Source: Escherichia coli
Lineage (GTDB): Bacteria; Pseudomonadota; Gammaproteobacteria; Enterobacterales; Enterobacteriaceae
Assembly (NCBI RefSeq): GCF_044647545.1
Contig: NZ_CP172818.1
Length of the DNA: 64,000 nt
Direction: 5' to 3' (one strand)
A program made the position numbers and the translations under genes. The notes beneath the pieces are model-generated. The model saw nothing but the letters and a program-made list of their open reading frames with translations. It was not told where the DNA came from and did not search any database. This document shows, one piece after another, positions 21,990 through 38,965 of the stretch. Every line of letters begins with the position of its first letter. Positions within the stretch are counted from its first letter, which is position 1.

Positions 21990-22223
21990 GGCAGCCAGTG
22001 GTCCTGTTTTCAATACGGCTACAAATGTAGCGTTGAGGTGGTTTTTCAGATCCGCATAGCATAGCCCAAACGTCCGCGTCAAAACAGCCTTTCGCGCACT
22101 CGACGTTGAAATGATGCCCGGATTATTCATACATTAATTTACAGAGTTTGTGGGCGTATTAGCAAAGCAAGGAACAAAGAACGTCTATTATTATAGTCAG
22201 TTAACGACCCGGGAGATGAAACG

Positions 22224-22706
22224 ATGAACAAGGTTGCTCAATATTACCGTGAACTGGTCGCGTCACTGAGCGAACGCCTGCGTAATGGCGAACGTGATAT
22301 CGACGCACTGGTGGAACAGGCGCGCGAGCGCGTAATAAAAACAGGGGAGTTAACGCGAACCGAGGTCGATGAGCTGACGCGAGCTGTCAGACGTGACCTG
22401 GAAGAGTTCGCCATGAGCTATGAAGAGAGCCTGAAAGAAGAATCTGACAGCGTCTTTATGCGGGTGATTAAAGAAAGCTTGTGGCAGGAGCTGGCAGACA
22501 TCACCGATAAAACGCAGCTTGAATGGCGCGAAGTTTTCCAGGACCTCAATCATCATGGGGTTTATCACAGCGGAGAAGTGGTAGGGCTGGGAAATCTGGT
22601 CTGCGAGAAATGTCACTTCCATCTCCCGATCTACACACCGGAAGTGCTGACGCTATGCCCGAAATGTGGTCATGACCAGTTCCAGAGACGCCCGTTCGAG
22701 CCTTAA
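22224..22706 (+). CDS. ybeL: YbeL, 160 aa, C-terminal zinc-ribbon-like protein of unknown function
   Basis: Two CxxC pairs (CEKCHF ... CPKCGH) at the C-terminus; recognised as YbeL. Confidence 0.85.
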   Translation: MNKVAQYYRELVASLSERLRNGERDIDALVEQARERVIKTGELTRTEVDELTRAVRRDLEEFAMSYEESLKEESDSVFMRVIKESLWQELADITDKTQLEWREVFQDLNHHGVYHSGEVVGLGNLVCEKCHFHLPIYTPEVLTLCPKCGHDQFQRRPFEP

Positions 22707-22775
22707 TGGTCTGATTTCGCACAGCAATAAAGATATATGGGCCGAATAAAATTCCCCGGCCCTTGTTTTTATCTC

Positions 22776-23759
22776 TTACAGTAAATCTTCAATCTCACGG
22801 ATTTTTTGACTGACATCCCTGGTACCGGATGACTGAGCTTTACGATACAGATCGAGAGCCTGTCGGAGATCGACAGGTCTTCCTTCTCCGTAATGATACA
22901 TAATGGCAAGGTTATACCAGGCAGTGGCATTATCGCATTCAGCGGCTTTCGTAAACCATTCAAAGGCGGCCTGATAATCTTTCTCAACGCCTTGTCCATG
23001 TTTATACATATAACCGATGTTGACGTAAGCGCCGACGCTTTCCTGAGCGGCAGCCTTCAGATACCAGTACATCGCTTGCTTATAGTCCTGGTCCACCCCT
23101 TCGCCAGCGTTATAATCCCATGCAATTTGAAACTGGGCATGCCGATTACCCTGCTGTGCGCTTTTCAAATACCAGAATGCGGCGAGTGTCTTATTTTGAG
23201 CAACGCCTTCTCCGTCTTTATAGAGATCGGCCAGGTTGTCTTGCGCGTAACTATGGCCTTGTAATGCAGCTTGTTTGTACCAGAAAAATGCCAGCGCATA
23301 GTCTTGTGCGACTCCGTTGCCATTTCTGTACATCCACCCAAGATTATTTTGCGCATAAGACATTCCGCTCTCCGCGGCTATCTGATACCAGGCAACCGCT
23401 TCTTTATAGTTGGGGTCTTCTCCACGATCCTGTATCCAGCCAAGGGCGTTGGAAGCGAAAGTATGGCCTTGTAGGGCAGCTTTTTTCAGCCAAAAGATGG
23501 CTTGCCCATTATCTTTATGACGGCTTTTATCCTCGGTATACTTTTGCCCTAAGGAATATTGTGCTTCACAATGACCTTGCTCAGCGGCAAGCTTCAGCCA
23601 GTAAAAGGCCTTTTCGTCGTCCGGAGAGTCAATTGCGCTATCGCGATTATAATAAAACCCAATAATATATTGAGCCTCGCAATCGCCTTTTTCAGCACGT
23701 TCGATAATCTCATCTATTGATAAATTATCGCAGCAACTTGACGTAAAAATCATTATCAT
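22776..23759 (-). CDS. ybeQ: Sel1-repeat (TPR-like) protein YbeQ, about 325 aa
   Basis: About eight tandem ~36-aa repeats with the Sel1 signature (AxxWYxKAAxQGxxxAQxxLGxxY); no obvious signal peptide; exact start (23759 vs 23753) uncertain. Confidence 0.85.
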   Translation of the reverse strand: MIMIFTSSCCDNLSIDEIIERAEKGDCEAQYIIGFYYNRDSAIDSPDDEKAFYWLKLAAEQGHCEAQYSLGQKYTEDKSRHKDNGQAIFWLKKAALQGHTFASNALGWIQDRGEDPNYKEAVAWYQIAAESGMSYAQNNLGWMYRNGNGVAQDYALAFFWYKQAALQGHSYAQDNLADLYKDGEGVAQNKTLAAFWYLKSAQQGNRHAQFQIAWDYNAGEGVDQDYKQAMYWYLKAAAQESVGAYVNIGYMYKHGQGVEKDYQAAFEWFTKAAECDNATAWYNLAIMYHYGEGRPVDLRQALDLYRKAQSSGTRDVSQKIREIEDLL

Positions 23760-23916
23760 TTCCTTATGGTTGCATATAAAGCATATTATATTTTTATGTG
23801 TTCCATTTTTGCGTAAGCCTTATTTTATGCGTATTATGTTGCGTCAGAAAAGTATAAATAAATGAGCCTCGCAACGTGGTTAATATTCATTGAATGAATA
23901 TTTAAGGATAAATTAT

Positions 23917-24624
23917 ATGGACATGGAGTCGCAAAAAATATTGTTTGCACTTTCCACTCCGATGGAAATACGCAATGAATGCTGTTTACCTTCGCATTCA
24001 TCCCCCAAAATGTATTTAGGTACACGCTTTTTTGACCTTTCTTCCTCCTGGGGAATTGATGACCGTGATGACCTGCTGCGCACAATTCACCGAATGATCG
24101 ATAACGGTCATGCCGCTCGGTTGGCAGGGCTTTATCACCGCTGGTTTCGTTATTCTCCGTGTGAATGGCGTGACTATCTTGCTGAACTAAATGAGCAAGG
24201 TCAGGCTTATGCGCAATTTGTCGCCAGCACCGCCGAATGCTGTGGCGAAGGGGGAATCAAAGCCTGGGATTATGTCCGGATGGGTTTTTTAAGCCGAATG
24301 GGCGTACTTAATAACTGGTTGAGTGAAGAAGAAAGCCTGTGGATCCAGTCGCGCATTCATCTACGGGCTCTACGTTATTATAGTAACTGGCAGCAATACT
24401 TTGCCGGTTATACCTTTGGTCGGCAATATTGGCAGTCTCCCGAGGATGATGATCTGCCTTTATTACGTGAATTCTTAGCGCGTAAAGAATACGACGATTC
24501 CGGCAATGATATGTTTTATCAATTATTTGCCAGTGACGATGCATATTACGCGACCTTACCCTGGCAACCACTGGCTGACTACCCCACATGCCCGGAAACG
24601 CTTAAGGATATGAGCGACCTATGA
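23917..24624 (+). CDS. ybeR: YbeR, 235 aa, DUF1266-like protein (family name from memory); paralogue of YbeU
   Basis: Start chosen at internal ATG so length matches the YbeU paralogue; shares [20 protein letters not shown] and ATLPWQPL...LKD(M/V)SDL with YbeU. Confidence 0.8.
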
Positions 24625-26048
24625 AAAATTGCTGGAAGATTCTCGAAATAGAGGAAACGACTGACGTCGATATTATCCGCCGCGCTTATCTGGCGCTGTT
24701 ACCGTCCTTTCATCCAGAAACCGATCCGCAGGGTTTTAAACAACTTCGTCAGGCGTATGAGGACGCGCTACGGATTGCGCAGTCGCCTGCTAAATCTGTT
24801 TGGCAACCAGAAGAACATGAAGTTGCAGAACATGAAATTCTGCTCGCCTTTCGTGCGTTACTCGCCTCTGATAGCGAACGTTTTCTGCCCTCTGCCTGGC
24901 AGCGATTCATTCAGCAATTAAATTATTGCTCGATGGAAGATATTGATGAATTACGCTGGTCGCTGTGCACAATAGCCATGAACACTGCCCATTTATCCTT
25001 CGAGTGCGTGGTGTTATTAGCAGAAAGATTGCGGTGGTTGCAGGAGGAAAACGTCGGGGAAATAGACGAAGAAGAACTGGAATCCTTTTTATATGCCATT
25101 GCGAAGGGGAATGTTTTTAACTTCCAGACCATTCTGCATCTGCCCGTTGCCGTACAAAATGACACCATTGATTTTTACCAAATGTTCGCTCGGATTTGGT
25201 CATCGCATCCAGAATGGCTGACATTGTATTTAGCGCAACATCGCGCAGTGATTATCCCCGATGATGCAAATTTGCACAGAAATTTACTCCGCTGGTATAG
25301 CACAAGCCGTCTGGATATCCCCGAACTTCTGGATTACGCCCGGTCGTGGCGGGAAGCTGAACCTGATAATGAAGATGCGCGTTATTATGAATACGCGCAA
25401 CGCGTCTATTGTGGAGAAGGCGAAAGCCTGCTGGCAGAACTTTGTGACTACTGGCGCGAGTATCCCTCCACCCAGGCGGATGCTTTAATGTTGCAATGGT
25501 GCCGTCAGCATCGGGTCGATTATTACCCGTTAGTGGTGATGATGATTGAAGCGCGTGATCTGGTTAACGATCAGGGAAAACCGCTACTTTATGTCCCTGG
25601 TGACAGCGCTCGTACGCGTTTTCATTTATACGAAATACTCAGTGATGAAAAACTCTCTGCGCTGGGGCGTTCTCTGGTCGAGATGGTTTTGCACAAAGGA
25701 CGTAAGCCGCGGATCTCACTCACGCGTGATACAGAACATACCTTATGGTCATTATATCTAGTTGCCAAACAATTAGTGCAGGCCAGCCAACCGACAGAAG
25801 AATCATTAATGCCGATTGTGAGCCGCCTTGATGCAGAAGATCGTTGTCCTCTGGAAGCATTAATTATTCGACGGTTATTAATTCAGGCGGCGAATTTTAC
25901 CGAGAAGCAAACCGTCGAACCGGAGCCGCAACCGCAGTCGATGCCCGTTGACGATGGTGGGCCGGGCTGTCTGGGCGTCATCAAAATTATTTTCTACATT
26001 TTTATCTTTGCCGGTTTAATAGGGAAAATACTCCATCTGTTCGGGTGA
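24621..26048 (+). CDS. djlB: J-domain co-chaperone DjlB (YbeS), 475 aa, with C-terminal hydrophobic anchor
   Basis: N-terminal J-like domain ([33 protein letters not shown]), C-terminal hydrophobic segment ([21 protein letters not shown]); start overlaps ybeR stop as ATGA. Confidence 0.85.
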
Positions 26049-26057
26049 CAGTCGACG

Positions 26058-26612
26058 TTAATGTGCGGGAAGCCCGGCAAGTAATCTTTCCGCGTTTTTG
26101 TAATGTTGTTTGGCGGCCAGTTTTAACCATTTTTGAGATTCATAATGGTTAACATTAATACCTGAGCCATTTCTGTAGATCAAACCCAAAGTATATTGAG
26201 CATGAGCATACCCTTGTTCAGCTGCTTCCTTATACCAGAGAATTGCTTTACGGGTATCGGGTTTGACCCCCAGACCTTTGAGGTAGATCCACCCCAGTTT
26301 ACTTTGCGCGCGTGGATTTTCCTGTTCCGCTGATTGCTCATACCAGTATCTCGCCTGTGTATAATCCAGTGGTTTACCGTCGCTACCATGAAGATAAAAT
26401 TCTCCAAGGCGATATTGCGACGTTGAGTGACCATGAATCGCGGAAAGCTCCGTGGCTGCCGTGGTGAATGGAAGACTGCCCGGTGAGCTTAAATAATCAA
26501 AGGCATAATTCGCCATGGCTTTATCACGCAACGTCGTTTTCTTGGGTTGGCTAATACAGGTTATTGCTGCAACTATAAATATTGCGAATGTATACATTAA
26601 TTTTTTATTCAT
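26058..26612 (-). CDS. ybeT: Sel1-repeat protein YbeT, 184 aa, with N-terminal signal-peptide-like segment
   Basis: Hydrophobic N-terminus ([21 protein letters not shown]) followed by about three Sel1 repeats. Confidence 0.85.
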
Positions 26613-26713
26613 GTGTGAATGCTTCGATTTTCTTTTTATTTTGAAAGCGTCAAGTTTATACTCATCAATAATAAAAAAGTAGTCAGTTAATGCACTTAAG
26701 GGATTATTAACAA

Positions 26714-27421
26714 ATGAATAAGGAAGAACAATATCTTCTTTTTGCGCTTTCTACGCCCATGGAAATACTTAATCAGGGTTGCAAGCCCGCGCATGACTCG
26801 CCAAAAATGTATACCGGGATAAAAGAATTCGATCTCTCATCATCCTGGGGAATAAATAATCGTGATGATTTAATTCAGACTATTTATCAGATGACCGATG
26901 ATGGTCATGCCAATGATTTAGCTGGCTTATATCTGACATGGCATCGCTCTTCCCCTGAAGAGTGGAAAGCATTAAATGCTGGTGGCTCGGAGAGAGGGTT
27001 GATTTATACCCAATTCGTTGCCCAAACCGCTATGTGTTGTGGGGAAGGGGGAATCAAAGCCTGGGATTATGTGCGGATGGGTTTTTTATCACGGGTTGGT
27101 GTGCTCAACAAGTGGCTGACGGAAGACGAGAGTTTATGGCTGCAATCGCGCGTCTATATACGAGCACACCATTACTATCACAGCTGGATGCACTATTTTT
27201 CCGCCTATTCGTTAGGGCGTCTCTACTGGCAATCTTCTCAGTGCGAAGACAACGCTTCGCTACGCGAGGCGCTAACCCTGTACAAATACGATAGCGCCGG
27301 GAGTCGGATGTTCGAAGAGCTGGCAGCGGGAAGCGACCGTTTCTATGCCACGCTTCCCTGGCAGCCATTAACTGTCCAGCCTGAATGCCCGGTAACGCTT
27401 AAGGATGTGAGCGACCTATGA
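26714..27421 (+). CDS. ybeU: YbeU, 235 aa, DUF1266-like protein; paralogue of YbeR
   Basis: Collinear similarity to YbeR over the full length. Confidence 0.85.
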
Positions 27422-28869
27422 AAACATGTTGGCAAATCCTCGAAATTGAAAGCACGACGCAAATAGACATTATCCGCCAGGCTTATCTTGTTCGCTTACC
27501 GTTGTGTCATCCCGAAACCGATCCGCAGGGGTTTAAAGCATTACGCCAGGCCTATGAAGAGGCGCTGCGACTGGCGGTAAATCCTGTCGAGGAGGCAGAT
27601 GATGAAGAAAAAGATGCCGCCGCTGAACATGAAATACTACGTGCATTCAGGGCATTACTGGATTCTGAAAGTGATCGTTTTCAGCCCTCCGCCTGGCAGA
27701 AATTTATTCAGCAATTAAATACCTGGAACATGGAGGATGTCGATCAATTACGCTGGCCGCTGTGTGCAGTCGCTATAGAAGCGCGATATCTTTCATTAAA
27801 TTGTGCTTCTTTGCTGGCAGAGCGTTTGAACTGGCATTCGTTTAATGACAGCGAAGGAATGGATGAGGAAGAAAGGGAGGCTTTTCTTGAGGCCATTCAG
27901 GCTGGTGATTGTTTCGATTTCCTTAGCCTTCTGGAATATCCCGTCGCGTTGCAGAACCAGACTGTTGAGTATTACTTCGCGCTGGAACGCTGCTGCCGTT
28001 ACCATCCTGACTATGTCACTGCGTTTATGGCAATGGAAGGTCCGTGGTTCATTCCTGATGATGTCAAGTTACATCGCAAACTGTTGCGCTGGTACAGCTC
28101 GGTGAAAACAGGTATGGCGGAACTTATTCCTGTTGCCCAACAGTGGCAAGCAGAAAATCCAGAAAGCGAAGATGCCCGTTATTACCAGTGTGCGCAACGG
28201 TTGTACTGTGGCGAGGGGGAAAGCCTGCTTGCCGATCTCTGCGCATACCGGGAGAGTTACCCATCTACACAAGCTGATAATTTGTTGTTGCAGTGGAGCA
28301 AGCGTCATTGCCCGGATTATTTCGCGTTATTAGTGATGGTTATCGAAGCGCGAAGCATGATAGATGCGCAAGGTCAACCGTTGAAATATGTTCCTGGTGA
28401 GAGCGCCCGGACGCGGCTGTTATGGGCGGAAATTTTACATAGCGGAAAATTATCGCCGTTAGGTCAATCGTTTATTGAGTCGTTATTCTTCAAGCGCAAA
28501 GCATGGGCATGGTGGAAATCGAGAGTCGGTAGCGAGACAGAACAAGATTCACCGTTACTGGATTTGTATCGGGTAGCGGAACAGGTTGTGCTGGAAGCGT
28601 TCCCGAAACAAGAGATGCTGGCCCGTCTTAATACAAGGCTGGAAGGTGGAGATGCTCATCCATTAGAGGCCATTATCACGCGGATGCTGTTGACGAAAGT
28701 GAAACTCGAGCCGGAGGATGAAGATGTCGATGAGCCAACACCTGAAAACCACGAAGAAAAAAATGATGAGGATGAAAAACCACAGAGCATTACCAGCATT
28801 ATCAAAATCAGCTTAACGGTGCTGGTGATAGGTTATGCTCTCGGAAAAATCGCGATGTTGTTTAGCTGA
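27418..28869 (+). CDS. djlC: J-domain co-chaperone DjlC (YbeV), 483 aa, with acidic tail and C-terminal hydrophobic anchor
   Basis: J-like domain ([13 protein letters not shown]), acidic stretch ([24 protein letters not shown]), terminal hydrophobic helix; start overlaps ybeU stop as ATGA. Confidence 0.85.
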
Positions 28870-28928
28870 GGATGTGTTTTTTGCGCCGATGCCGGATGCA
28901 GCGTTTATGCCGCATCCGGCAGCCGTGT
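28870..28928. repeat. REP (repetitive extragenic palindrome) element between convergent djlC and hscC
   Basis: gccgatgccggatgcagcgtttatgccgcatccggcagcc palindrome typical of E. coli REP units. Confidence 0.6.
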
Positions 28929-30599
28929 TTAAGGGATCTCAATAGCCAAATAATCGCTCGCCCGTCGCCGAACTTCATCGACGCGGGCCATATCGTTTGA
29001 CTGCAACGCCGCATCAAAATCGGTGATCACCCGGCCGATCTCTTCTCGCTCGTCACCCAGCGCCCGCGCCCACAACTCTTCCAGTTTGGCCTTAAAGGTG
29101 CGGTTGATGAGCATATCGCGCGGATAAATTTTCAATGCGGATAACCGCGTCCGACTCTCTTCAATCTGCTGTGCGCTCAATGTTACAGGACTGTGATTAA
29201 TGACTCTGGACTTAACGCTGCCGTCTTCCAGAAGCACGTCAACTTCAAGCAACCCGTTGATATCATAACTAAAGCGAATATCAATCGACTGATAAGCCCC
29301 GGTTTTCTTCAACGGCACATCGAAGGATTCCACCAGAATGTTATTTTTAACTTTGTGGTTTTCTCCCTGATAGACGTTAACCGTAATTGAATCCTGTTCC
29401 CGGTGCATGGTCGAGTAAGTTTCTACACGCGACACCGGTACAGTGGTGTTTCGTTCAATAATCGGCGAGAAAATGCCGGAAACGCCCTGGCGGTTAACTT
29501 CAACACCCAACGAGTAAGGGCAAATATCAGTGAGGATCACCTCTTCAATATCTTCACTGCGTAAGCGGCAGGCGGCCTGGATTGCTGCGCCCAGCGCGAC
29601 AATGGTGCTCGGATCGTAACTTTGATACGGTAATTTGCCAAACAGACGCACGGCGATTCGCTGCACCAGCGGCATTTGTGATGCGCCGCCAACCAGCACC
29701 AGACTGTCGATTTGACTTGGCTTCAGACGTGCATCGCGCAACGCCTGTTCAATCGGTACTCGCAAGCGATTGAGCAGCGGCAACCACAAATCTTCCAGTT
29801 CGTTCTCGTAAAATTCGCACTCACGCGTTTCTTCCTGACACTGCCAGCTAATTTGCAGCGGTAATTGATTGCTGCATTTTGCCGCTTCCACGCTGGTGTA
29901 CAGGGCTGCCAGCTCACTTTCGTTGAGCATGTTTTTAGCCACTGCGGCGCGTTTTAAAACTTCATCCACCAGCATATGAGTAAAATCTTCGCCGCCAAGA
30001 AAGTTGTCGCCAGCGGAGGCGTGAACTTCAATCACCGGCGTGGCGTATTCGAGCACCGTGACGTCAAACGTGCCGCCACCGAGATCAAAAACCAGCGAGC
30101 GGGTATTTTGTTGCGTATGCAGGCCATATGCCATCGCAGCTGCTGTGGGTTCATTAATTAAGCGTACCGCATTTAACCCGGCTAACTCCGCTGCTAAACG
30201 GGTATGCTTGCGTTGTTCATCGCTGAAATAAGCCGGAACGGAGATCACCACATCTTTAATCGGACGTTGCAGAAATTCTTCGGCATCTTCTTTTAATGAG
30301 CGTAATACCAAAGAGGACAGTTCTGGCGCGTTAAATGTGTCGCTGCCTAACCGCCAGTTGGTATTACTGCCCATTGCACGTTTAAATAACGCTGCCGTTT
30401 TATCCGGATGCGAAGTACGCCGTGATACAGCCGGTTTTCCGACTAAAATATGATTATTTTCATCCATGCTAATTATGGATGGTGTTAAATATTCACCGAA
30501 CTTATTTGGAATTAATTGCGCGGCACCGTCTTTCCAGACGGCAATTAAACTATTGGTAGTACCGAGATCGATACCAATGGCGAGTTCTGCATTATCCAT
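28929..30599 (-). CDS. hscC: Hsp70-family chaperone HscC (Hsc62), 556 aa
   Basis: Hsp70 ATPase signatures (IGIDLGTTNS, DLGGGTFD, VLVGGASQMP) and substrate-binding domain. Confidence 0.9.
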   Translation of the reverse strand: MDNAELAIGIDLGTTNSLIAVWKDGAAQLIPNKFGEYLTPSIISMDENNHILVGKPAVSRRTSHPDKTAALFKRAMGSNTNWRLGSDTFNAPELSSLVLRSLKEDAEEFLQRPIKDVVISVPAYFSDEQRKHTRLAAELAGLNAVRLINEPTAAAMAYGLHTQQNTRSLVFDLGGGTFDVTVLEYATPVIEVHASAGDNFLGGEDFTHMLVDEVLKRAAVAKNMLNESELAALYTSVEAAKCSNQLPLQISWQCQEETRECEFYENELEDLWLPLLNRLRVPIEQALRDARLKPSQIDSLVLVGGASQMPLVQRIAVRLFGKLPYQSYDPSTIVALGAAIQAACRLRSEDIEEVILTDICPYSLGVEVNRQGVSGIFSPIIERNTTVPVSRVETYSTMHREQDSITVNVYQGENHKVKNNILVESFDVPLKKTGAYQSIDIRFSYDINGLLEVDVLLEDGSVKSRVINHSPVTLSAQQIEESRTRLSALKIYPRDMLINRTFKAKLEELWARALGDEREEIGRVITDFDAALQSNDMARVDEVRRRASDYLAIEIP

Positions 30600-30682
30600 T
30601 GCATTTATATCTTGAAAGAAAAAGAGATAAACAGATTAAGACCACCCAGGTAACGCGTGGTGATCTTAATCAATGACGTGTG

Positions 30683-31618
30683 TTAAGCGTAAAATTTCAG
30701 ACGATCGGCCAGTAAATCAACAAAGCCCTGACGATCAACATCGACCATTACAGTGGCATTCGGTTTATTGCCAGTCAGATAATAATAATCAACAACCGTC
30801 ATACCCTGGGTATATTTCCCTTGTGTTTCCACGCCAACCCAGCGCTCAACAGTGGTAAACAACTCCGGTTTTAACAGCCAGGCGATGGTGCATGGGTCAT
30901 GCAGCGGTGCGCCGACAAAGCCCCATTTTTCGTCTTTATGATATTCGAGGAAGAAATCCAGCAGTTCGGCAACAATGGTTGAAACAGGGTTGCCAATCGC
31001 GCGGAAACGCTCAGTGTCTTCAACGTGGATTTGTGCTTTGTGAGTAACATCCAGACCGGCCATCACCACCGGAATTCCTGACTGGAAGACAATTTCTGCC
31101 GCTTCCGGGTCAACGTAAATATTAAATTCAGCCGCAGGCGTCCAGTTACCAAGCCCCATTGCGCCGCCCATAATCACGATACGGGCAATTTTGCTATGCA
31201 GTTCCGGGTGGCTATTGAGCAGCAAGGCAACGTTCGTTTGCGGTCCGGTAGAAACAATGGTGACAGGTTCCGCACTTTCACGCAGCGTTTTCGCCATCAG
31301 CTCCACCGCCGTACAGTTTTGCGGTGCGAACGTCGGTTCCGGTAATGCAGGGCCGTCGAGACCGCTTTCGCCGTGCACATTGTCCGCGATAATCAAATCA
31401 CGCATTAATGGTTTTACCGCACCGCTTGCTACCGGAATATCGGTGCGATTAAGCAAGGTCAGCATACGCAGAACATTGCGTAAGGTTTTTTCTGGTGTCT
31501 GGTTTCCGGCGGAAGACGTAATTGCTTTGACATCAAGCTCTGGTGAGGCGAGGGCGAGAACGATTGCGATAGCGTCATCATGACCAGGGTCGCAATCTAA
31601 CAGAATTGGCAGTGCCAT
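30683..31618 (-). CDS. rihA: Pyrimidine-specific ribonucleoside hydrolase RihA, 311 aa
   Basis: Nucleoside hydrolase N-terminal DxDxxxDD motif (DCDPGHDDA); start set at [15 protein letters not shown]. Confidence 0.9.
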
Positions 31619-31735
31619 TGTTGCTCCTTGTTGTGTGCTTCTTTGCGACAAGGGTACCGCCAGGATGTAACAGATACGAGGAGCGAAACGATAAAGCGTG
31701 AGATGGCGCGCACTTGGGTATGCGCGCCAGAGTGA

Positions 31736-33135: not shown

Positions 33136-33875
33136 TATTTGCCCCCCATGTTGCCGGGCAGGCGAACTTTACGTTCAACCAGCGTCATCACCAGCATGAT
33201 AAAAGCGTTAATCAACACATACGCAAGCGTAATGGCGGTAAACGACTCCCAGGCGTGAGCGGAGTAATCGAGTAATTTACCCGCCTGCGCCGCCATATCT
33301 ACCAGACCGATAGTCGAGGCGATGGCGGAGTTTTTCACCAGGTTCATCATCTCGGAGGTCATCGGCGGGACGATAACGCGATAAGCGTTAGGCAACAGTA
33401 CGTAGCGGTAAGCCTGCGGTAGCGTCAGCCCCATCGCCAGCGCGGCATTCTTCTGCCCACGCGGCAGCGACTGAATAGCGGCGCGTACCTGTTCGCAAAC
33501 ACGGGCGGCGGTAAACAGCCCCAGGCAAAGCATGGATGAAAGGAAAAACTGAATATTGGGATCCAGCTCGGCCTTAAACCACATGCCGATTTTCTCCGGC
33601 AGCAGCTCCGGGATCACCAGATACCAGGTAAAGAATTGCACAATCAACGGCACGTTGCGGAACAGTTCGACATACAACGTACCCAGACCGGAGAGAAAAC
33701 GGTTTGGAACGGTACGTAAAATGCCGAAAAATGAACCGACGAGGAAAGCGATAATCCAGGCGCAGATCGACAAAGCGATCGTCACCTGAAAGCCACTCCA
33801 GATCCAACCAAGATAGGTGGTGTTGCCGAACGGGGCTTGTTGTAAAAAAATACCCCAGTTCCAGTCTATAGACAT
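33135..33875 (-). CDS. gltJ: Glutamate/aspartate ABC transporter permease GltJ, 246 aa
   Basis: Polytopic permease recognised as GltJ. Confidence 0.9.
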
Positions 33876-33879
33876 AAAT

Positions 33880-34043
33880 CTACTCCAGAAAAAAGAGGGT
33901 AGCAGCGTTAACTGCTACCCTCGAAGATTGTTACCCAGCGTATTGCGGTTTTCAGGCCCGATGGGGAACGACCACCAGGCGTATAGTCTGTCCGTGCTAC
34001 GTAACAATCGAGAGGGCTGGAATTTCCGCCCCTGGTTCTTGTA
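33880..34043 (-). ncRNA. sroC: Candidate sRNA SroC in the gltI-gltJ intergenic region
   Basis: Position matches the known SroC locus; on the minus strand a strong hairpin (gagggtagcag-ttaac-gctgctaccctc) plus a T-run ends just upstream of the gltJ RBS; SroC sequence itself not verified from memory. Confidence 0.5.
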
Positions 34044-34044
34044 A

Positions 34045-34953
34045 TTAGTTCAGTGCCTTGTCATTCGGTTCTTTGAACAGTGCTTTCATTTCGTCTGACA
34101 GTTCGAAATTCATGTTCAGGTTTTTCGGCGGAATTGGGTTTTTGAACCACTTATCAAACCATTTTTCCGCTTCACCGGAGGTCTGCACCTGAGCGATAGT
34201 GTCATCCATCAGCTTTTTGAACTGCGGATCGTCTTTACGCAACATGCAACCGTAGGCTTCCTGAGACTGCGGCTTGCCGACGATTTCCCAGTTGTCTGGT
34301 TTCTTCGCTTTCGCACGTTCACCGGCCAGCAGGGCATCATCCATCATAAAGGCAACGGCACGACCGCTTTCCAGGGTGCGGAAAGAGTCACCGTGATCTT
34401 TGGCGCTGATGATGCGCATGTTCATTTTTTGCTCTTCATTCAGTTTGTTGAGCAAAACTTCAGAGGTGGTGCCGGAAGTGACTACGACGGCTTTGTCTTT
34501 CAGATCGGCAAAATCTTTAATATCGCCGCCTTTTTTTGTCAGCAGGCGCGTACCGACCACGAAAATAGTGTCGGAGAAAGCCGCCTGTTTTTGGCGTTCG
34601 ACGTTGTTGGTGGTAGAACCGCATTCAAAATCGAAAGTGCCGTTTTGCAGCAGTGGAATACGGTTTTGTGAGGTGATCGGAATCAATTTCACCTGTAAGT
34701 CTGGTTTGTTGAGTTTCTTTTTCACTGCTTCAACAATGGCGTTGGAGTAATCCTGCGAGTAGCCCACCACTTTTTGCTGATTGTCGTAATAAGAGAAAGG
34801 TACTGAAGATTCACGGTGACCGACGACAATCACGCCGTTTTTGGCGATTTTGTCCAGCGTGCTGCCTGCTGCCGGGGCGGCGTCATCTGCCTGTGCCAGT
34901 CCTGCGGAAAGCGCCAGGGCCAGGATTGCTGTGGCAGGTTTACGTAATTGCAT
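34045..34953 (-). CDS. gltI: Glutamate/aspartate periplasmic binding protein GltI, about 302 aa
   Basis: Signal peptide plus solute-binding protein fold; start set at second ATG (MQLRKPATA). Confidence 0.9.
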   Translation of the reverse strand: MQLRKPATAILALALSAGLAQADDAAPAAGSTLDKIAKNGVIVVGHRESSVPFSYYDNQQKVVGYSQDYSNAIVEAVKKKLNKPDLQVKLIPITSQNRIPLLQNGTFDFECGSTTNNVERQKQAAFSDTIFVVGTRLLTKKGGDIKDFADLKDKAVVVTSGTTSEVLLNKLNEEQKMNMRIISAKDHGDSFRTLESGRAVAFMMDDALLAGERAKAKKPDNWEIVGKPQSQEAYGCMLRKDDPQFKKLMDDTIAQVQTSGEAEKWFDKWFKNPIPPKNLNMNFELSDEMKALFKEPNDKALN

Positions 34954-35050
34954 ATCCAACTCCTTTATCTTCTGCGTTAAAAACGCATGGATACCCGTTG
35001 TGAGTGTTTGTGTTGTTATCTCTGCGACTTTTTGTGCGGTTGTGTTTTGG

Positions 35051-35082
<32 letters not shown>

Positions 35083-35689
35083 TTAGGTAACATTTAGTTT
35101 GGATAAATGTAAAGGTATTGCTGTTTTATTGTTTGTTTTTGCGAGATGCGCCGCACCATTCCGAAGCAAAATTCTTAAACTGCACCTTTTTGGTGCTACC
35201 GCTGATTTGTGGTGGTGCAACCCGGTTGCGTCGCGGTTGATTTCATTGCTTACACAGTAAATAAAGCAACTTACATGCCAAAAAATACTTAGGGGTGCAT
35301 TAATTACGATTGTAATTTCAGTTTGAAAAAGTCATATTTCGGACAGTGTTAACTTTTCGGTGTGGGAATTTTGCCGGGATGATAACTACACACGGGAAAA
35401 TGTTTTTTACTAGTCTTTTCAAGGAAAAATCACTTTATGTCTGCATCTTCGGTTAAGCCGTTAAATGTTCAATTACCCGCAATAACCCTGATCCTTTTTG
35501 CGCTCTGTGTTGGGATATTTTGTTACCTCGCACAATGGATGAGTTACAAAAAAGTCAATAAATCCGCACTCATCCATCTCGGCGCTAACTTTCTCTCTCT
35601 CACGTTGTCGGGTAAACCCTGGCGTTTATTTAGCAGTGTCTTTTTACAGTATTTTTTCTCTTTTATAGATATATATTTTTGCACTCTGG

Positions 35690-36790
35690 TTAGGGGGGAG
35701 GGGGGGAAGGGAAAATGGGGAAAAGGGGATCCCTATTGTTTGCCTTTTTCTCTCGGGTTTGTGTGGTGAGCACATCGTCTTGTGTTATGCGCGAAAAAAA
35801 AGAGAAAAGATAGATAGGTGGGGGGGCCGGGGGAAAAAAGGAAAAAAAGGGGGGGCGGTAAGAAAAAAACACTTCTTTAGGGGGGAGAACACAATAAAAA
35901 ACAGCGGCGAGGTTTTTTCCTTTTTGGTGGGGTGGCGCTAACGTTGTGTTGCGGCCCGGGAAAAAGAGAAAAAAAAAGCCTCTTCAATGGCGGGGCCGTG
36001 GGTGGGGGGGGGGGTTGGGTGGGGGGGGGCCCGGTTAGGTGGGACAAAACCGTTTCGTAAGGAAGGGCGAGTTTTTTGTGGCTCTTCTTTTCTCCGGCGG
36101 GGTATTTCGGGTGTGCAGCAGCAGAATGATGAAAAATTTTTTTAAAATAGGGGAAAACCGCGTGAAAAGTTTTTTTCCCAGGAGAATAAACAAAAGGAGC
36201 GAAAAAAAAAACAACAATTTAGGGGGGAGGGCAAAGCCCCCACCGAAACATTATCCGCTCCGGTAAGTCGTGAGGAGGCCAGTGGTGATTTACTCGCTGA
36301 GATTGCCGATAACCATGATATGGCGATCAATCGGGATGGTAATACGTTATATGCCGCAAATGAAAACACGAACAGTATTTTTTTTTTCGACCTCGGACAA
36401 AAGAAAATCTCCCATACTTTTATACCGCCCATAGCAAAAAAAAAAAAACACAAAAATTGTGGGGTCTGTAAAAATAAGGGGGTAAGATGGCGGTGGTTAA
36501 GCCCGAAAAAAAGGTTTTTTTATCCACTTTTATTTAAAATGAATGCGTGATCGTTAATAAAGGGGCGGAGGGGGGGGATAATTCAGTCAATAACCACCTG
36601 CACACATCCTGACAGTTTTATCCTCTCGTGGAATGAAAAAAAAGCTGGGTGAATAATGCAACCAATAAAATGTATTTATTCATCTATTGATTTATTAACT
36701 TATAAGGAAGGAGATGCCGCCCGAAAAAAAAAAAACGGGGGGGGGAGGAGGGGAAAAAGACGCCCGTGTGATATTACTCTCCGCGGTAAA
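35690..36790. other. Low-complexity purine-rich block with long poly-G and poly-A runs; no coherent coding frame; probable artefact or degraded DNA
   Basis: Runs such as gggggggaggggggg, gtggggggggggggttgggtggggggggg, aaaaaaaaaaaac and gggggggggagg; every overlapping ORF translates to low-complexity G/K/F/P-rich peptides. Confidence 0.8.
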
Positions 36791-37423
36791 AAAACATTGT
36801 TGATACCGCTTGGATTGAGAGAAAGCATATTCGAATCAATAACATCACGAATCATAAAGTAGAATTTCCCACATGTGATGGGTGTGGTGTCGTTGTTGTG
36901 ATGGGAGTATGATAACGAAAAAATAATAGTATTTTTATCGATAATATCGAGGGTATACGAGTAAAAGTTTAAGGATAGAAAAAAAAGAAGCAAAGATCAA
37001 AAGGGAGTGGTGAAACCGTTATCTCTATTAGGTTGAGAGGCAGGAGTGTAAATAGTTGTGTTTTGGTCTGGATGGCAAAGGGATTGTAACCTTTTTTAAT
37101 ATAAAGCCGGGGAAAAGATTGGCGGTTTTTCTCCCCATAACTTTTATTCTTCTCTGTTTTTCAGCGGATGGTAGAAAGATATTTGTTATGGCGAAGAACG
37201 GGTTAATCCAAATGGACAGGACGCGCTCGCTTGATCCGCAGGCAATTATTCGGCATCCCCAATATGGTGATGTGGCTTGTATCCCTGAACCGTAAGAAAA
37301 AGGGGCATGATAATCACGCCCGAAGTAATGAGAAAGTACGTTTTGTTGATACCGGATGCGGTGTTAACGGTTTATTTAGCCTGCAAAAATGATGCAATTT
37401 TGCAGGCCAGCGCATCATTTACA

Positions 37424-38965
37424 TCAACGTTTACGTCGCTGACGCAGACTCATCAACACAGCGGCAAAACCAAACAGCGCCGTAAGCACCCACAGCGGCC
37501 AGTTGCCGGTACGTGCGTACGGTGTGAGTCCGGTAGTCGGCGTCACGTTAGTGGTCAACACTTCGCGGGTGAACTGCGGGATCATTGCCTGAATCTCACC
37601 CTGCGGGCCAATCACCGCCGTAATACCGTTGTTGGTGCTACGCAGCAATGGGCGCGCCAGCTCCAACGCACGCATTCGCGCCATCTGGAAGTGCTGCCAT
37701 GGACCAATAGACTTACCAAACCACGCATCGTTGGAGATAGTCAGCAGATAGTCGGTATCCGGGCGGAAGTTATCGCGCACTTGCTCGCCGAGAATGATCT
37801 CGTAGCAAATAGCCGCAGTAAGCTCAATACCATTTACCGACAGCGGCGGCTGGATATATGGCCCACGGCTGAACGACGACATCGGCAGATCAAAGAACGG
37901 TGCTAACGGACGCAGAATCGACTCCAGCGGGACAAACTCGCCAAACGGCACCAGATGGTTTTTGTTATAGCGATCGGCTGATTCATAGCTGTACGGTGCG
38001 CCTTTACCCAGTGTGATGATGGTGTTGTAGGTATCGTAGCGGTTCTGCTTATTGAGACGCGCGTCGACAATCCCGGTGACCAGCGAGCTACCTTTATCGC
38101 GCAACTCACCGTCCAGAGCTTTGAGGAACGGTTGCTGATTAATTTCCAGATCGGTTATCGCCGACTCCGGCCAGATAATCAACGATGATTTGCCCATCAG
38201 CGGTGCCGTTGCGTTGTAGTAAATCTTCAGCGTATTAAGAAGCTGGCCTTCGTCCCATTTCAGCGATTGCGGAATATCGCCCTGAACCATCGAAACCTGA
38301 ATGGTTTTCTCCGGTTGCGGGGTAAACCACTGGATGTAACGCAGCGGGAAGGGTAGGGCAAACAGCACGACGGCCACCACCAGCGGACGCCAGTTGCGTT
38401 TGACTAACGCCAGTGCCAGCAGGCCGCTAACCATCATAAGCAGGAAGTTAATGGCTTCCACGCCCATTAGCGGTGCCAGCCCTTTTAACGGGCCATCAAT
38501 CTGGCTATAGCCGAACTGTAACCACGGGAAGCCAGTCAGCACCCAACCGCGCAGAAACTCGGTCACTTGCCAGAGAGCAGGAGCGGCAATCGCCACGCGC
38601 AGCCAGGTGGTTTTCGGCCACAGACGCGACAGCACGCCAGCAAACAGTCCGGTATACAGCGACAAATACGCCGCCAGCAGTACCACCAGGAAGATGTTAA
38701 CCGGGCCAGGCATTCCGCCAAAGGTCGCGATGCTGACATAGACCCAGTTAATACCGCTGCCAAAGAGACCAAATCCCCAGCAAAAGCCAATAGCGGCAGA
38801 CTGGAGTGGACGGCGGTTAAAGGTCAGCGCCTGAAGCCCCATCAGCGAAATAATCGCCGCAGGCCAGACATCGTAAGGAGAGAAGGCCAGCGTTCCGCAG
38901 GCACCGAATAATAACGCCAGCAGCAGGCGAATGCGCTGGCGTTCAATTAATGAGGCAAAAGCCAT
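37424..38965 (-). CDS. lnt: Apolipoprotein N-acyltransferase Lnt (CutE), about 512 aa
   Basis: N-terminal multi-TM region and C-terminal nitrilase-like domain; recognised as Lnt. Confidence 0.9.

Follow-up and report, generated by a model that had tools for sequence, protein, structure and literature searches.

The specialised Hsp70 HscC (Hsc62) of Escherichia coli was described together with two J-proteins, DjlB (YbeS) and DjlC (YbeV/Hsc56), by Kluck et al. (2002, as cited in PMC8215388). Both J-proteins carry a tail anchor and an HPE motif, the sole tolerated variant of the canonical HPD and one that is specific to HscC partners (2026 review, PMC13254874), and both have a dedicated Hsp70 partner. 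DjlC, which is tail-anchored (PMC8215388; PMC13254874), stimulates the ATPase of HscC, whereas DnaJ, CbpA and HscB do not (PMC8215388), and hscC and djlB djlC mutants have been reported to show Cd2+ and ultraviolet (UV) phenotypes (PMC8215388). HscC has been the one E. coli Hsp70 without a clear cellular job for more than 20 years, and reviews up to 2026 present it as an Hsp70/J pair; the parts of PMC8215388 that describe HscC and the Djl proteins likewise treat them as a two-component system and do not mention YbeR or YbeU. The locus analysed here is the same system. It is formed by ybeQ, ybeR, djlB, ybeT, ybeU, djlC and hscC at positions 22776–30599 of the window (the whole 64,000-nucleotide stretch of E. 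coli contig NZ_CP172818.1, assembly GCF_044647545.1). Comparison with other bacteria indicates that it probably encodes a membrane-tethered three-part HscC machine, in which paralogous pairs of a DUF1266 protein and a J-protein share one HscC. The genes and the HscC/DjlB/DjlC system are already known, but DUF1266 as an integral component appears to be under-described.

Conservation of the DUF1266, J-protein and HscC triad

The seven open reading frames (ORFs) lie where the first-pass annotation had placed them, flanked by leuS/ybeL and rihA/gltL. The interval 22200–31700 is 100 % identical to E. coli FDAARGOS_497, annotated there as ybeL, ybeQ, ybeR, djlB, ybeT, ybeU, djlC, hscC and rihA, which bears out the earlier assignment of HscC with DjlB and DjlC to the known specialised Hsp70 system. 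Pfam assigns two of the proteins to DUF1266 (PF06889; YbeU at 3e-44 over model positions 2–175 of 175, YbeR at 2e-47), two to Sel1, one to HSP70 (1e-99) and two, weakly, to DnaJ. On the plus strand, ybeR (23917–24624; 235 aa) precedes its partner djlB (24621–26048), and ybeU (26714–27421; 235 aa) precedes djlC (27418–28869); both junctions are 4-nt ATGA start/stop overlaps. YbeR and YbeU are 62 % identical and DjlB and DjlC 49 %. The hscC gene (28929–30599, minus strand; 556 aa) is convergent to djlC and would supply the single motor common to both adaptor pairs. A repetitive extragenic palindromic (REP) element occupies the junction between them (28884–28925; inverted pair 28891–28903/28908–28920), and the REP core is matched 15 times in the window, where 2.8 matches would be expected. 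The start/stop overlaps of the DUF1266 and J genes, read as translational coupling in the first-pass annotation, and the REP element noted there are thus present.

HscC has nucleotide-binding and substrate-binding domains, and DnaK structures are its closest solved relatives (1e-92 over residues 6–466). It scores below the NCBIfam equivalog cut-offs for both DnaK (385 bits vs 648) and HscA (379 vs 709), its length varies from 555 to 566 aa across loci, and no EEVD-like tail was found in the C-termini inspected.

The wider distribution was assessed with a profile of YbeR/YbeU relatives, which finds 1075 cluster representatives, and with a one-genome-per-species scan of 45 loci, which were anchored on DUF1266 and in which ORFs were called and then searched with the E. 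coli proteins. The order of DUF1266 gene, J-protein gene (with start/stop overlap) and convergent hscC was observed in 38–39 of about 40 informative loci, with hscC convergent to the J gene in 39. The triad occurs in Escherichia, Klebsiella, Rahnella, Pragia, Erwinia, Yersinia, Limnobaculum, Brenneria, Gilliamella and many Pseudomonas, and its flanks are unrelated between genera, while flanking synteny is stable within Pseudomonas. It also surrounds DUF1266 relatives with just 21–25 % identity. Genes standing between the J gene and hscC were considered as possible clients and rejected as unrelated metabolic insertions; these are dehydrogenases in Pragia, Limnobaculum and Leminorella and, in locus L004, an MFS transporter and an M20 peptidase.

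Two Firmicute-type proteins join the components covalently. The 497-aa P0243, of Firmicute type, fuses an HPE J domain, TPR repeats and DUF1266, and the 777-aa P0267 of Bacillus sp. FJAT-52991 fuses an HPE J domain, a DjlB_C_2nd/TPR region, a hydrophobic segment and DUF1266. There is an overlap between the P0267 gene and the end of an Hsp70 gene encoding a 567-aa protein; this Hsp70 matches HscC at 45 % identity across the full length, the HscC-specific C-terminus included. These fusions indicate that the partnership of DUF1266, J-protein and HscC spans phyla. Judged by sequence comparison, the conserved unit is a DUF1266 protein, a membrane J-protein and HscC; it is recognizable in different phyla and at identities as low as about 21 %. 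The first-pass annotation had proposed that a seven-gene module, Sel1 genes included, might travel as a unit; the neighbourhood comparison contradicts this, since the roughly 40 loci share DUF1266, J-protein and HscC only and the Sel1 genes are not co-conserved. The new point is that the conserved extra component is DUF1266, not Sel1.

The J-proteins and the predicted DUF1266 fold

The tail-anchored DjlB and DjlC are class C J-proteins composed of an HPE J domain, a TPR-like helical domain and a C-terminal transmembrane (TM) helix; for DjlC, a co-chaperone role with HscC has been shown by experiment. The Pfam DnaJ match is weak for both (1e-3) and reaches 7e-6 in homologues, and it is present at E≤0.1 in all 11 aligned J-protein members. 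HPE replaces the canonical HPD invariantly in 11 of the 11 aligned J partners and in both Firmicute fusions. Helices of the J domain are predicted at DjlC residues 3–8, 16–29 and 36–54 (268–273, 281–294 and 301–319 in the fused model described below). The C-terminal hydrophobic anchor spans residues 449–467 in DjlB (mean hydropathy 2.37) and 464–482 in DjlC (1.99). Outside the Escherichia/Salmonella/Citrobacter/Klebsiella group, the J-proteins are about 900 aa long; they have the same N-terminal region, are lengthened by further helical sequence and end in a DUF805 membrane domain instead of the single tail-anchor helix; membrane anchoring is hence conserved, by a tail-anchor TM helix in the short forms and by DUF805 in the long ones.

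The central domain of the Djl proteins resembles TPR at the level of fold only, in the predicted model, and no TPR Pfam family was found in DjlB, in DjlC or in long J-proteins of Proteobacteria. Homologues are annotated with PF27158 (DjlB_C_2nd), and in Firmicute relatives TPR Pfam matches lie beside it; DnaJ, PF27158 and genuine TPR families are combined in many proteins of Paenibacillus, Brevibacillus and Clostridium. The idea that the extra 400 or so residues of the long J-proteins are Sel1 or TPR repeats, replaced by YbeQ and YbeT in E. coli, was discarded, as Pfam finds neither there.

Structure prediction for YbeU alone was confident, giving an all-alpha domain (predicted local distance difference test, pLDDT, 91.9) for which there is no solved homologue. 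Invariant polar and aromatic residues of DUF1266 include H65, D118, R121, R127, E139 and several Trp, and its conserved C-terminal tail, K-P-x-S-L...D-W-S, was weighed as a possible TPR-docking peptide but is encoded by a region overlapping the ribosome-binding region of the downstream gene. A fused model was also obtained, in which a DUF1266 protein, a linker and a J-protein (the first ~430 residues) form one chain with a paired alignment from 21 loci. For YbeU and DjlC this single chain had a pLDDT of 82.7 and a predicted template modelling score (pTM) of 0.76. As DjlC makes up no more than about 62 % of the chain, a pTM of 0.76 would imply that YbeU is placed confidently relative to DjlC. 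The predicted association of the two proteins, judged on pLDDT and pTM, is suggestive only.

A proposed three-part HscC machine

These observations suggest an arrangement tethered to the inner membrane, in which HscC would act as the ATPase motor and a membrane-anchored class C J-protein, either DjlB or DjlC, would activate it through the HPE J domain. The large cytosolic domain of the J-protein, a putative TPR-like helical scaffold, might offer a platform for clients. The DUF1266 protein (YbeR or YbeU) would be made stoichiometrically with its partner through translational coupling and would most likely sit on the helical domain of the J-protein as a subunit that selects clients or has a regulatory role. 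Two diverged adaptor pairs would feed a single HscC in Escherichia, Salmonella and Citrobacter, presumably with differing client ranges. Of the Sel1 genes, ybeQ is specific to this clade and ybeT to Escherichia; both are probably later additions rather than core parts. The cluster as a whole is silenced by H-NS and expressed at a very low level; purifying selection on it is moderate, and in E. coli it has been cut down or lost repeatedly. The more specific proposal, that DUF1266 is a third HscC subunit with a client-selecting or regulatory role, docked on the TPR-like domain of HPE membrane J-proteins, fused to them in Firmicutes and kept as far as the Gammaproteobacteria, with the paralogous pairs diversifying the specificity of one Hsp70, is a tentative one, to which we give slightly less than an even chance.

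Were DUF1266 obligatory and the TPR-like domain a client platform, HscC could be approached with concrete handles such as co-purification of YbeU with DjlC or client trapping, and studies using HscC with DjlC only may have overlooked specificity. In the literature searched, the coverage of which was incomplete, no paper assigns a function to YbeR, YbeU, YbeQ, YbeT or the whole module, in agreement with the earlier view of the module.

Several points weigh against such a machine. The proposed link of YbeR and YbeU to HscC and the Djl proteins is drawn from the order of the genes, from fusions and from one AlphaFold model of a single chain, in which the covalent linker may itself favour the association of YbeU with DjlC. 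Co-occurrence of DUF1266 and HscC was scored in one direction, from the DUF1266 anchor. DUF1266 is also found without Hsp70, as tandem DUF1266 and in fusions to Cu_amine_oxidN1, SLH and LRR, so the domain is not exclusive to the HscC system. Finally, HscC, DjlB and DjlC fall under the limit of proteomic detection in growing K-12 (PMC8215388).

Sel1 genes and duplication history

The first-pass annotation had read the locus as a Sel1, DUF1266 and J-protein module repeated twice. The duplication holds for the DUF1266 and J-protein genes, whereas YbeQ and YbeT differ in size and topology and are not equivalent copies. The ybeQ gene (22776–23753, minus strand; ORF extendable to 23759) encodes a cytoplasmic protein of 325 aa without a hydrophobic segment, while ybeT (26058–26612, minus strand), an Escherichia-specific insertion between the modules, encodes a short protein of 184 aa with an N-terminal hydrophobic segment, either a signal or an anchor, and YbeT is probably extracytoplasmic. 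Both contain Sel1 repeats according to Pfam, within which they are about 35 % identical; partial NCBIfam matches to MerG, MotX, ExoR and AlgK stay below the cut-offs.

The lineage-restricted ybeQ is confined to Escherichia, Salmonella and Citrobacter, and ybeT to Escherichia; no Sel1 gene lies within 10 kb of the cluster in any of the approximately 40 loci scanned outside Escherichia. In Salmonella and Citrobacter, ybeQ is present along with the two DUF1266/J pairs and ybeT is missing, with 12–73 bp between djlB and the second DUF1266 gene, and Klebsiella spallanzanii has one pair and neither Sel1 gene. When Escherichia, Salmonella and Citrobacter are compared, positional orthologues are closer to each other than paralogues are, which indicates that the DUF1266/J pair was duplicated before the three genera split. 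A separate tandem duplication was observed in GCA_019703835.1 (locus L061, 3409–12215), with the order DUF1266, J (873 aa), DUF1266, J (905 aa) and HscC; its J-proteins are of the long type, and its layout parallels that of E. coli but includes no Sel1 gene. Escherichia sp. MOD1-EC7003 (L006, 3648–5003) has two additional split ORFs resembling J-proteins (93 and 344 aa) between ybeL and ybeQ, possibly what is left of a third DUF1266/J module. In Salmonella enterica (L051, 12951–14189), a 412-aa gene without a Pfam match lies between hscC and rihA; the loci of E. coli and Citrobacter do not contain it.

Evolutionary rate and regulation

Between E. coli and Salmonella or Citrobacter, identity amounts to 91–96 % in the flanking genes, 82–83 % in HscC, 64–69 % in DUF1266 proteins, 53–60 % in YbeQ and 48–57 % in the J-proteins. 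Within E. coli, the ratio of nonsynonymous to synonymous substitution rates (dN/dS) is 0.13–0.18 for the island genes and 0–0.08 for the flanks, and island pseudogenes occur in several lineages. The low interspecies identity, taken with these dN/dS values, indicates that the adaptors evolve fast yet remain under purifying selection.

The island is AT-richer than its surroundings, as had been judged by eye, with a GC content of 0.470, compared with 0.524 and 0.508 for the flanking sequence. AT content is particularly high in two divergent intergenic regions: that between ybeQ and ybeR (23754–23916; 27.6 % GC), presumed to be a promoter and H-NS target region, and that between ybeT and ybeU (26613–26713; 27.7 % GC). 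A scan of the island for sigma-70 promoters and terminators gave nothing above shuffled expectation except one hairpin 3′ of ybeQ (22739–22762, minus strand), a terminator-like, GC-rich structure with an 8-pair stem, 6 of them GC pairs, followed by a T-run, which is a consensus match only; an Rfam search inside the island returned no RNA family. Published data link the locus to SlyA and H-NS. Upon SlyA overexpression, ybeT rises 4.1-fold and the ybeU-djlC operon is induced 2.8-fold; ybeT belongs to both the SlyA and H-NS regulons, and ybeU-djlC is listed in the latter (PMC5797941). In E. coli 042, mutation of hns strongly derepresses a DUF1266 gene (PMC7582179).

Presence, loss and inheritance of the locus

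In a survey of 5426 complete E. coli genomes, hscC was present in about 4400 and the full island in 3669, while about 700 genomes (~13 %) had a reduced version. Single-module variants lack precisely one repeat unit of 2.8 kb, a pattern consistent with unequal recombination of the paralogous modules. In about 1000 genomes (~19 %) the island is gone, and ybeL and rihA lie just 44 bp apart. At the empty site of E. coli GABEEC10 (L001, 2008–2051), the 44-bp spacer is a REP-like hairpin unlike either island border, implying that the deletion extends from one stop codon to the other and covers everything intergenic.

The genes bordering the locus are conserved and outside the system: ybeL on the left (22224–22706, plus strand) encodes a DUF1451 zinc-ribbon protein, identified from its ORF and Pfam match, and rihA (30683–31618, minus strand) lies on the right. 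The cluster adjoins ybeL in Escherichia species, Klebsiella spallanzanii, Salmonella and Citrobacter, which speaks against the variable hotspot considered earlier. No integrase, transposase, tRNA or direct-repeat border was found between ybeL and rihA, and no cluster was found in genuine phages or on mobilisable plasmids; the matches to E. coli ‘plasmids’ are chromosome-sized records. In Erwinia persicina, a DUF1266 gene is carried on non-mobilizable megaplasmids of 130–165 kb (H63–H66), the only plasmid-borne case seen, and the full DUF1266/J/HscC triad is present on E. persicina draft contigs L014 and L025. Among genomic-island features, only a modest drop in GC content and patchy presence in E. 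coli were found. Since sister genera share this chromosomal site, mobility genes are missing and the cluster is off phages and mobilisable plasmids, its absence from E. coli genomes is due to deletion and not to non-acquisition. The accessory character proposed earlier thus survives as a presence/absence polymorphism within E. coli and fails in view of a fixed site, missing mobility genes and absence by deletion: the locus is old, vertically inherited and deletion-prone, and is not mobile. For genome scanning, the lesson is that what looks like an island may be such a locus and not a mobile element.

The first-pass annotation had also regarded this cluster as the only accessory-type segment of the window. 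The gltI–lnt spacer is likewise variable, an accessory insertion covered to at least 80 % in only 1071 of the 5426 E. coli genomes. In the window, positions 34900–37420, between gltI (34045–34959) and lnt (37424–38965), are the sole difference from NZ_CP033850.1 across the compared intervals 22200–31700 and 33460–38917. Identity to that reference is 59–75 % in sub-blocks, with indels; C is depleted, with a GC skew of up to +0.28, a GC content of ~41 % and long homopolymers (A28, G-runs); and the reference’s ORF for a 625-aa rhomboid-family protease is destroyed, leaving no ORF above 110 aa. This segment has the look of corrupted or artificial sequence and not of a natural allele. An ordinary sroC small RNA from the gltI-gltJ spacer lies at 33887–34049 on the minus strand (Rfam RF00369, 172.6 bits).

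Alternative explanations

The main rival to a three-part machine is that YbeR and YbeU are a dedicated client or a regulated target of HscC and the Djl proteins, remodelled or held at the membrane in the way that IscU is for HscA/HscB. The gene-order and fusion evidence would also fit a client, the invariant residues of DUF1266 suggest an activity or ligand site of its own, and the domain also works in contexts without an Hsp70. Nevertheless, translational coupling and covalent fusion to J and TPR domains are more typical of subunits, and in the fused model the domain is predicted to be stable and well folded and to pack onto DjlC, so that a client role is considered rather unlikely.

Two further readings, a decaying remnant and a defence island, are less likely still. 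That the E. coli cluster is a cryptic remnant without present function, with its adjacency merely ancestral, could be argued from the pseudogenes, the complete loss in about 19 % of genomes, the silencing by H-NS and the undetectable protein levels. It is improbable given that intact copies are under purifying selection at the dN/dS values given above, that the triad is retained across Proteobacteria and Firmicutes, and that the Cd2+ and UV phenotypes of the mutants have been published. An accessory island of seven genes (Sel1, DUF1266 and J twice, plus hscC), mobile as a unit in a variable hotspot and possibly serving defence or conflict, would account for the presence/absence and size polymorphism in E. 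coli, the lower GC content with AT-rich promoter regions under H-NS and SlyA control, the fast evolution of the adaptors between E. coli and Salmonella (Djl 48–56 %, DUF1266 64–65 % and YbeQ 53 % identity, against 91–96 % in the flanks) and the repeated duplication of the adaptor pair. It is highly improbable in view of the absence of Sel1 genes from every locus outside the Escherichia/Salmonella/Citrobacter clade, the unchanged chromosomal site in sister genera, borders free of integrase, transposase and tRNA genes, the absence from real phages and from plasmids other than the Erwinia persicina megaplasmids, the stable flanking synteny in Pseudomonas and dN/dS values well under 1. PADLOC defence models also gave no meaningful match: among the seven proteins, there were only spurious PtuA matches to Sel1 repeats (E 5e-4 to 2e-3), no PtuA stretch passed alone, and the five non-Sel1 proteins matched nothing. 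NCBIfam and PADLOC together returned only generic Sel1 and Hsp70 matches.

Comparison with described chaperone systems

The three-part HscC machine proposed here extends the described HscC/Djl pair by a third, co-inherited and sometimes fused component, DUF1266, and by the TPR-like nature of the central Djl domain. The system resembles HscA–HscB (Hsc66–Hsc20), another specialised and GrpE-independent bacterial Hsp70 with an exclusive J-protein, encoded with its partner or client. However, HscA/HscB is soluble, has IscU as its client and uses a canonical HPD in HscB, and HscC scores well below the HscA cut-off. The likeness to TPR-containing co-chaperones and Hsp70-docking receptors, namely DNAJC3/p58IPK, DNAJC7, Tom70 and Sec72, is one of fold in a predicted model, without sequence homology; in the Djl proteins the order is J domain, TPR-like domain and TM helix, with HPE and an HscC-type Hsp70, and the eukaryotic TPR systems have no DUF1266 equivalent. 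DjlA, which acts with DnaK, is similarly an inner-membrane-bound J-protein that brings Hsp70 activity to the membrane, but it differs in having an N-terminal anchor, a C-terminal J domain with canonical HPD, DnaK as its partner and no DUF1266 partner.

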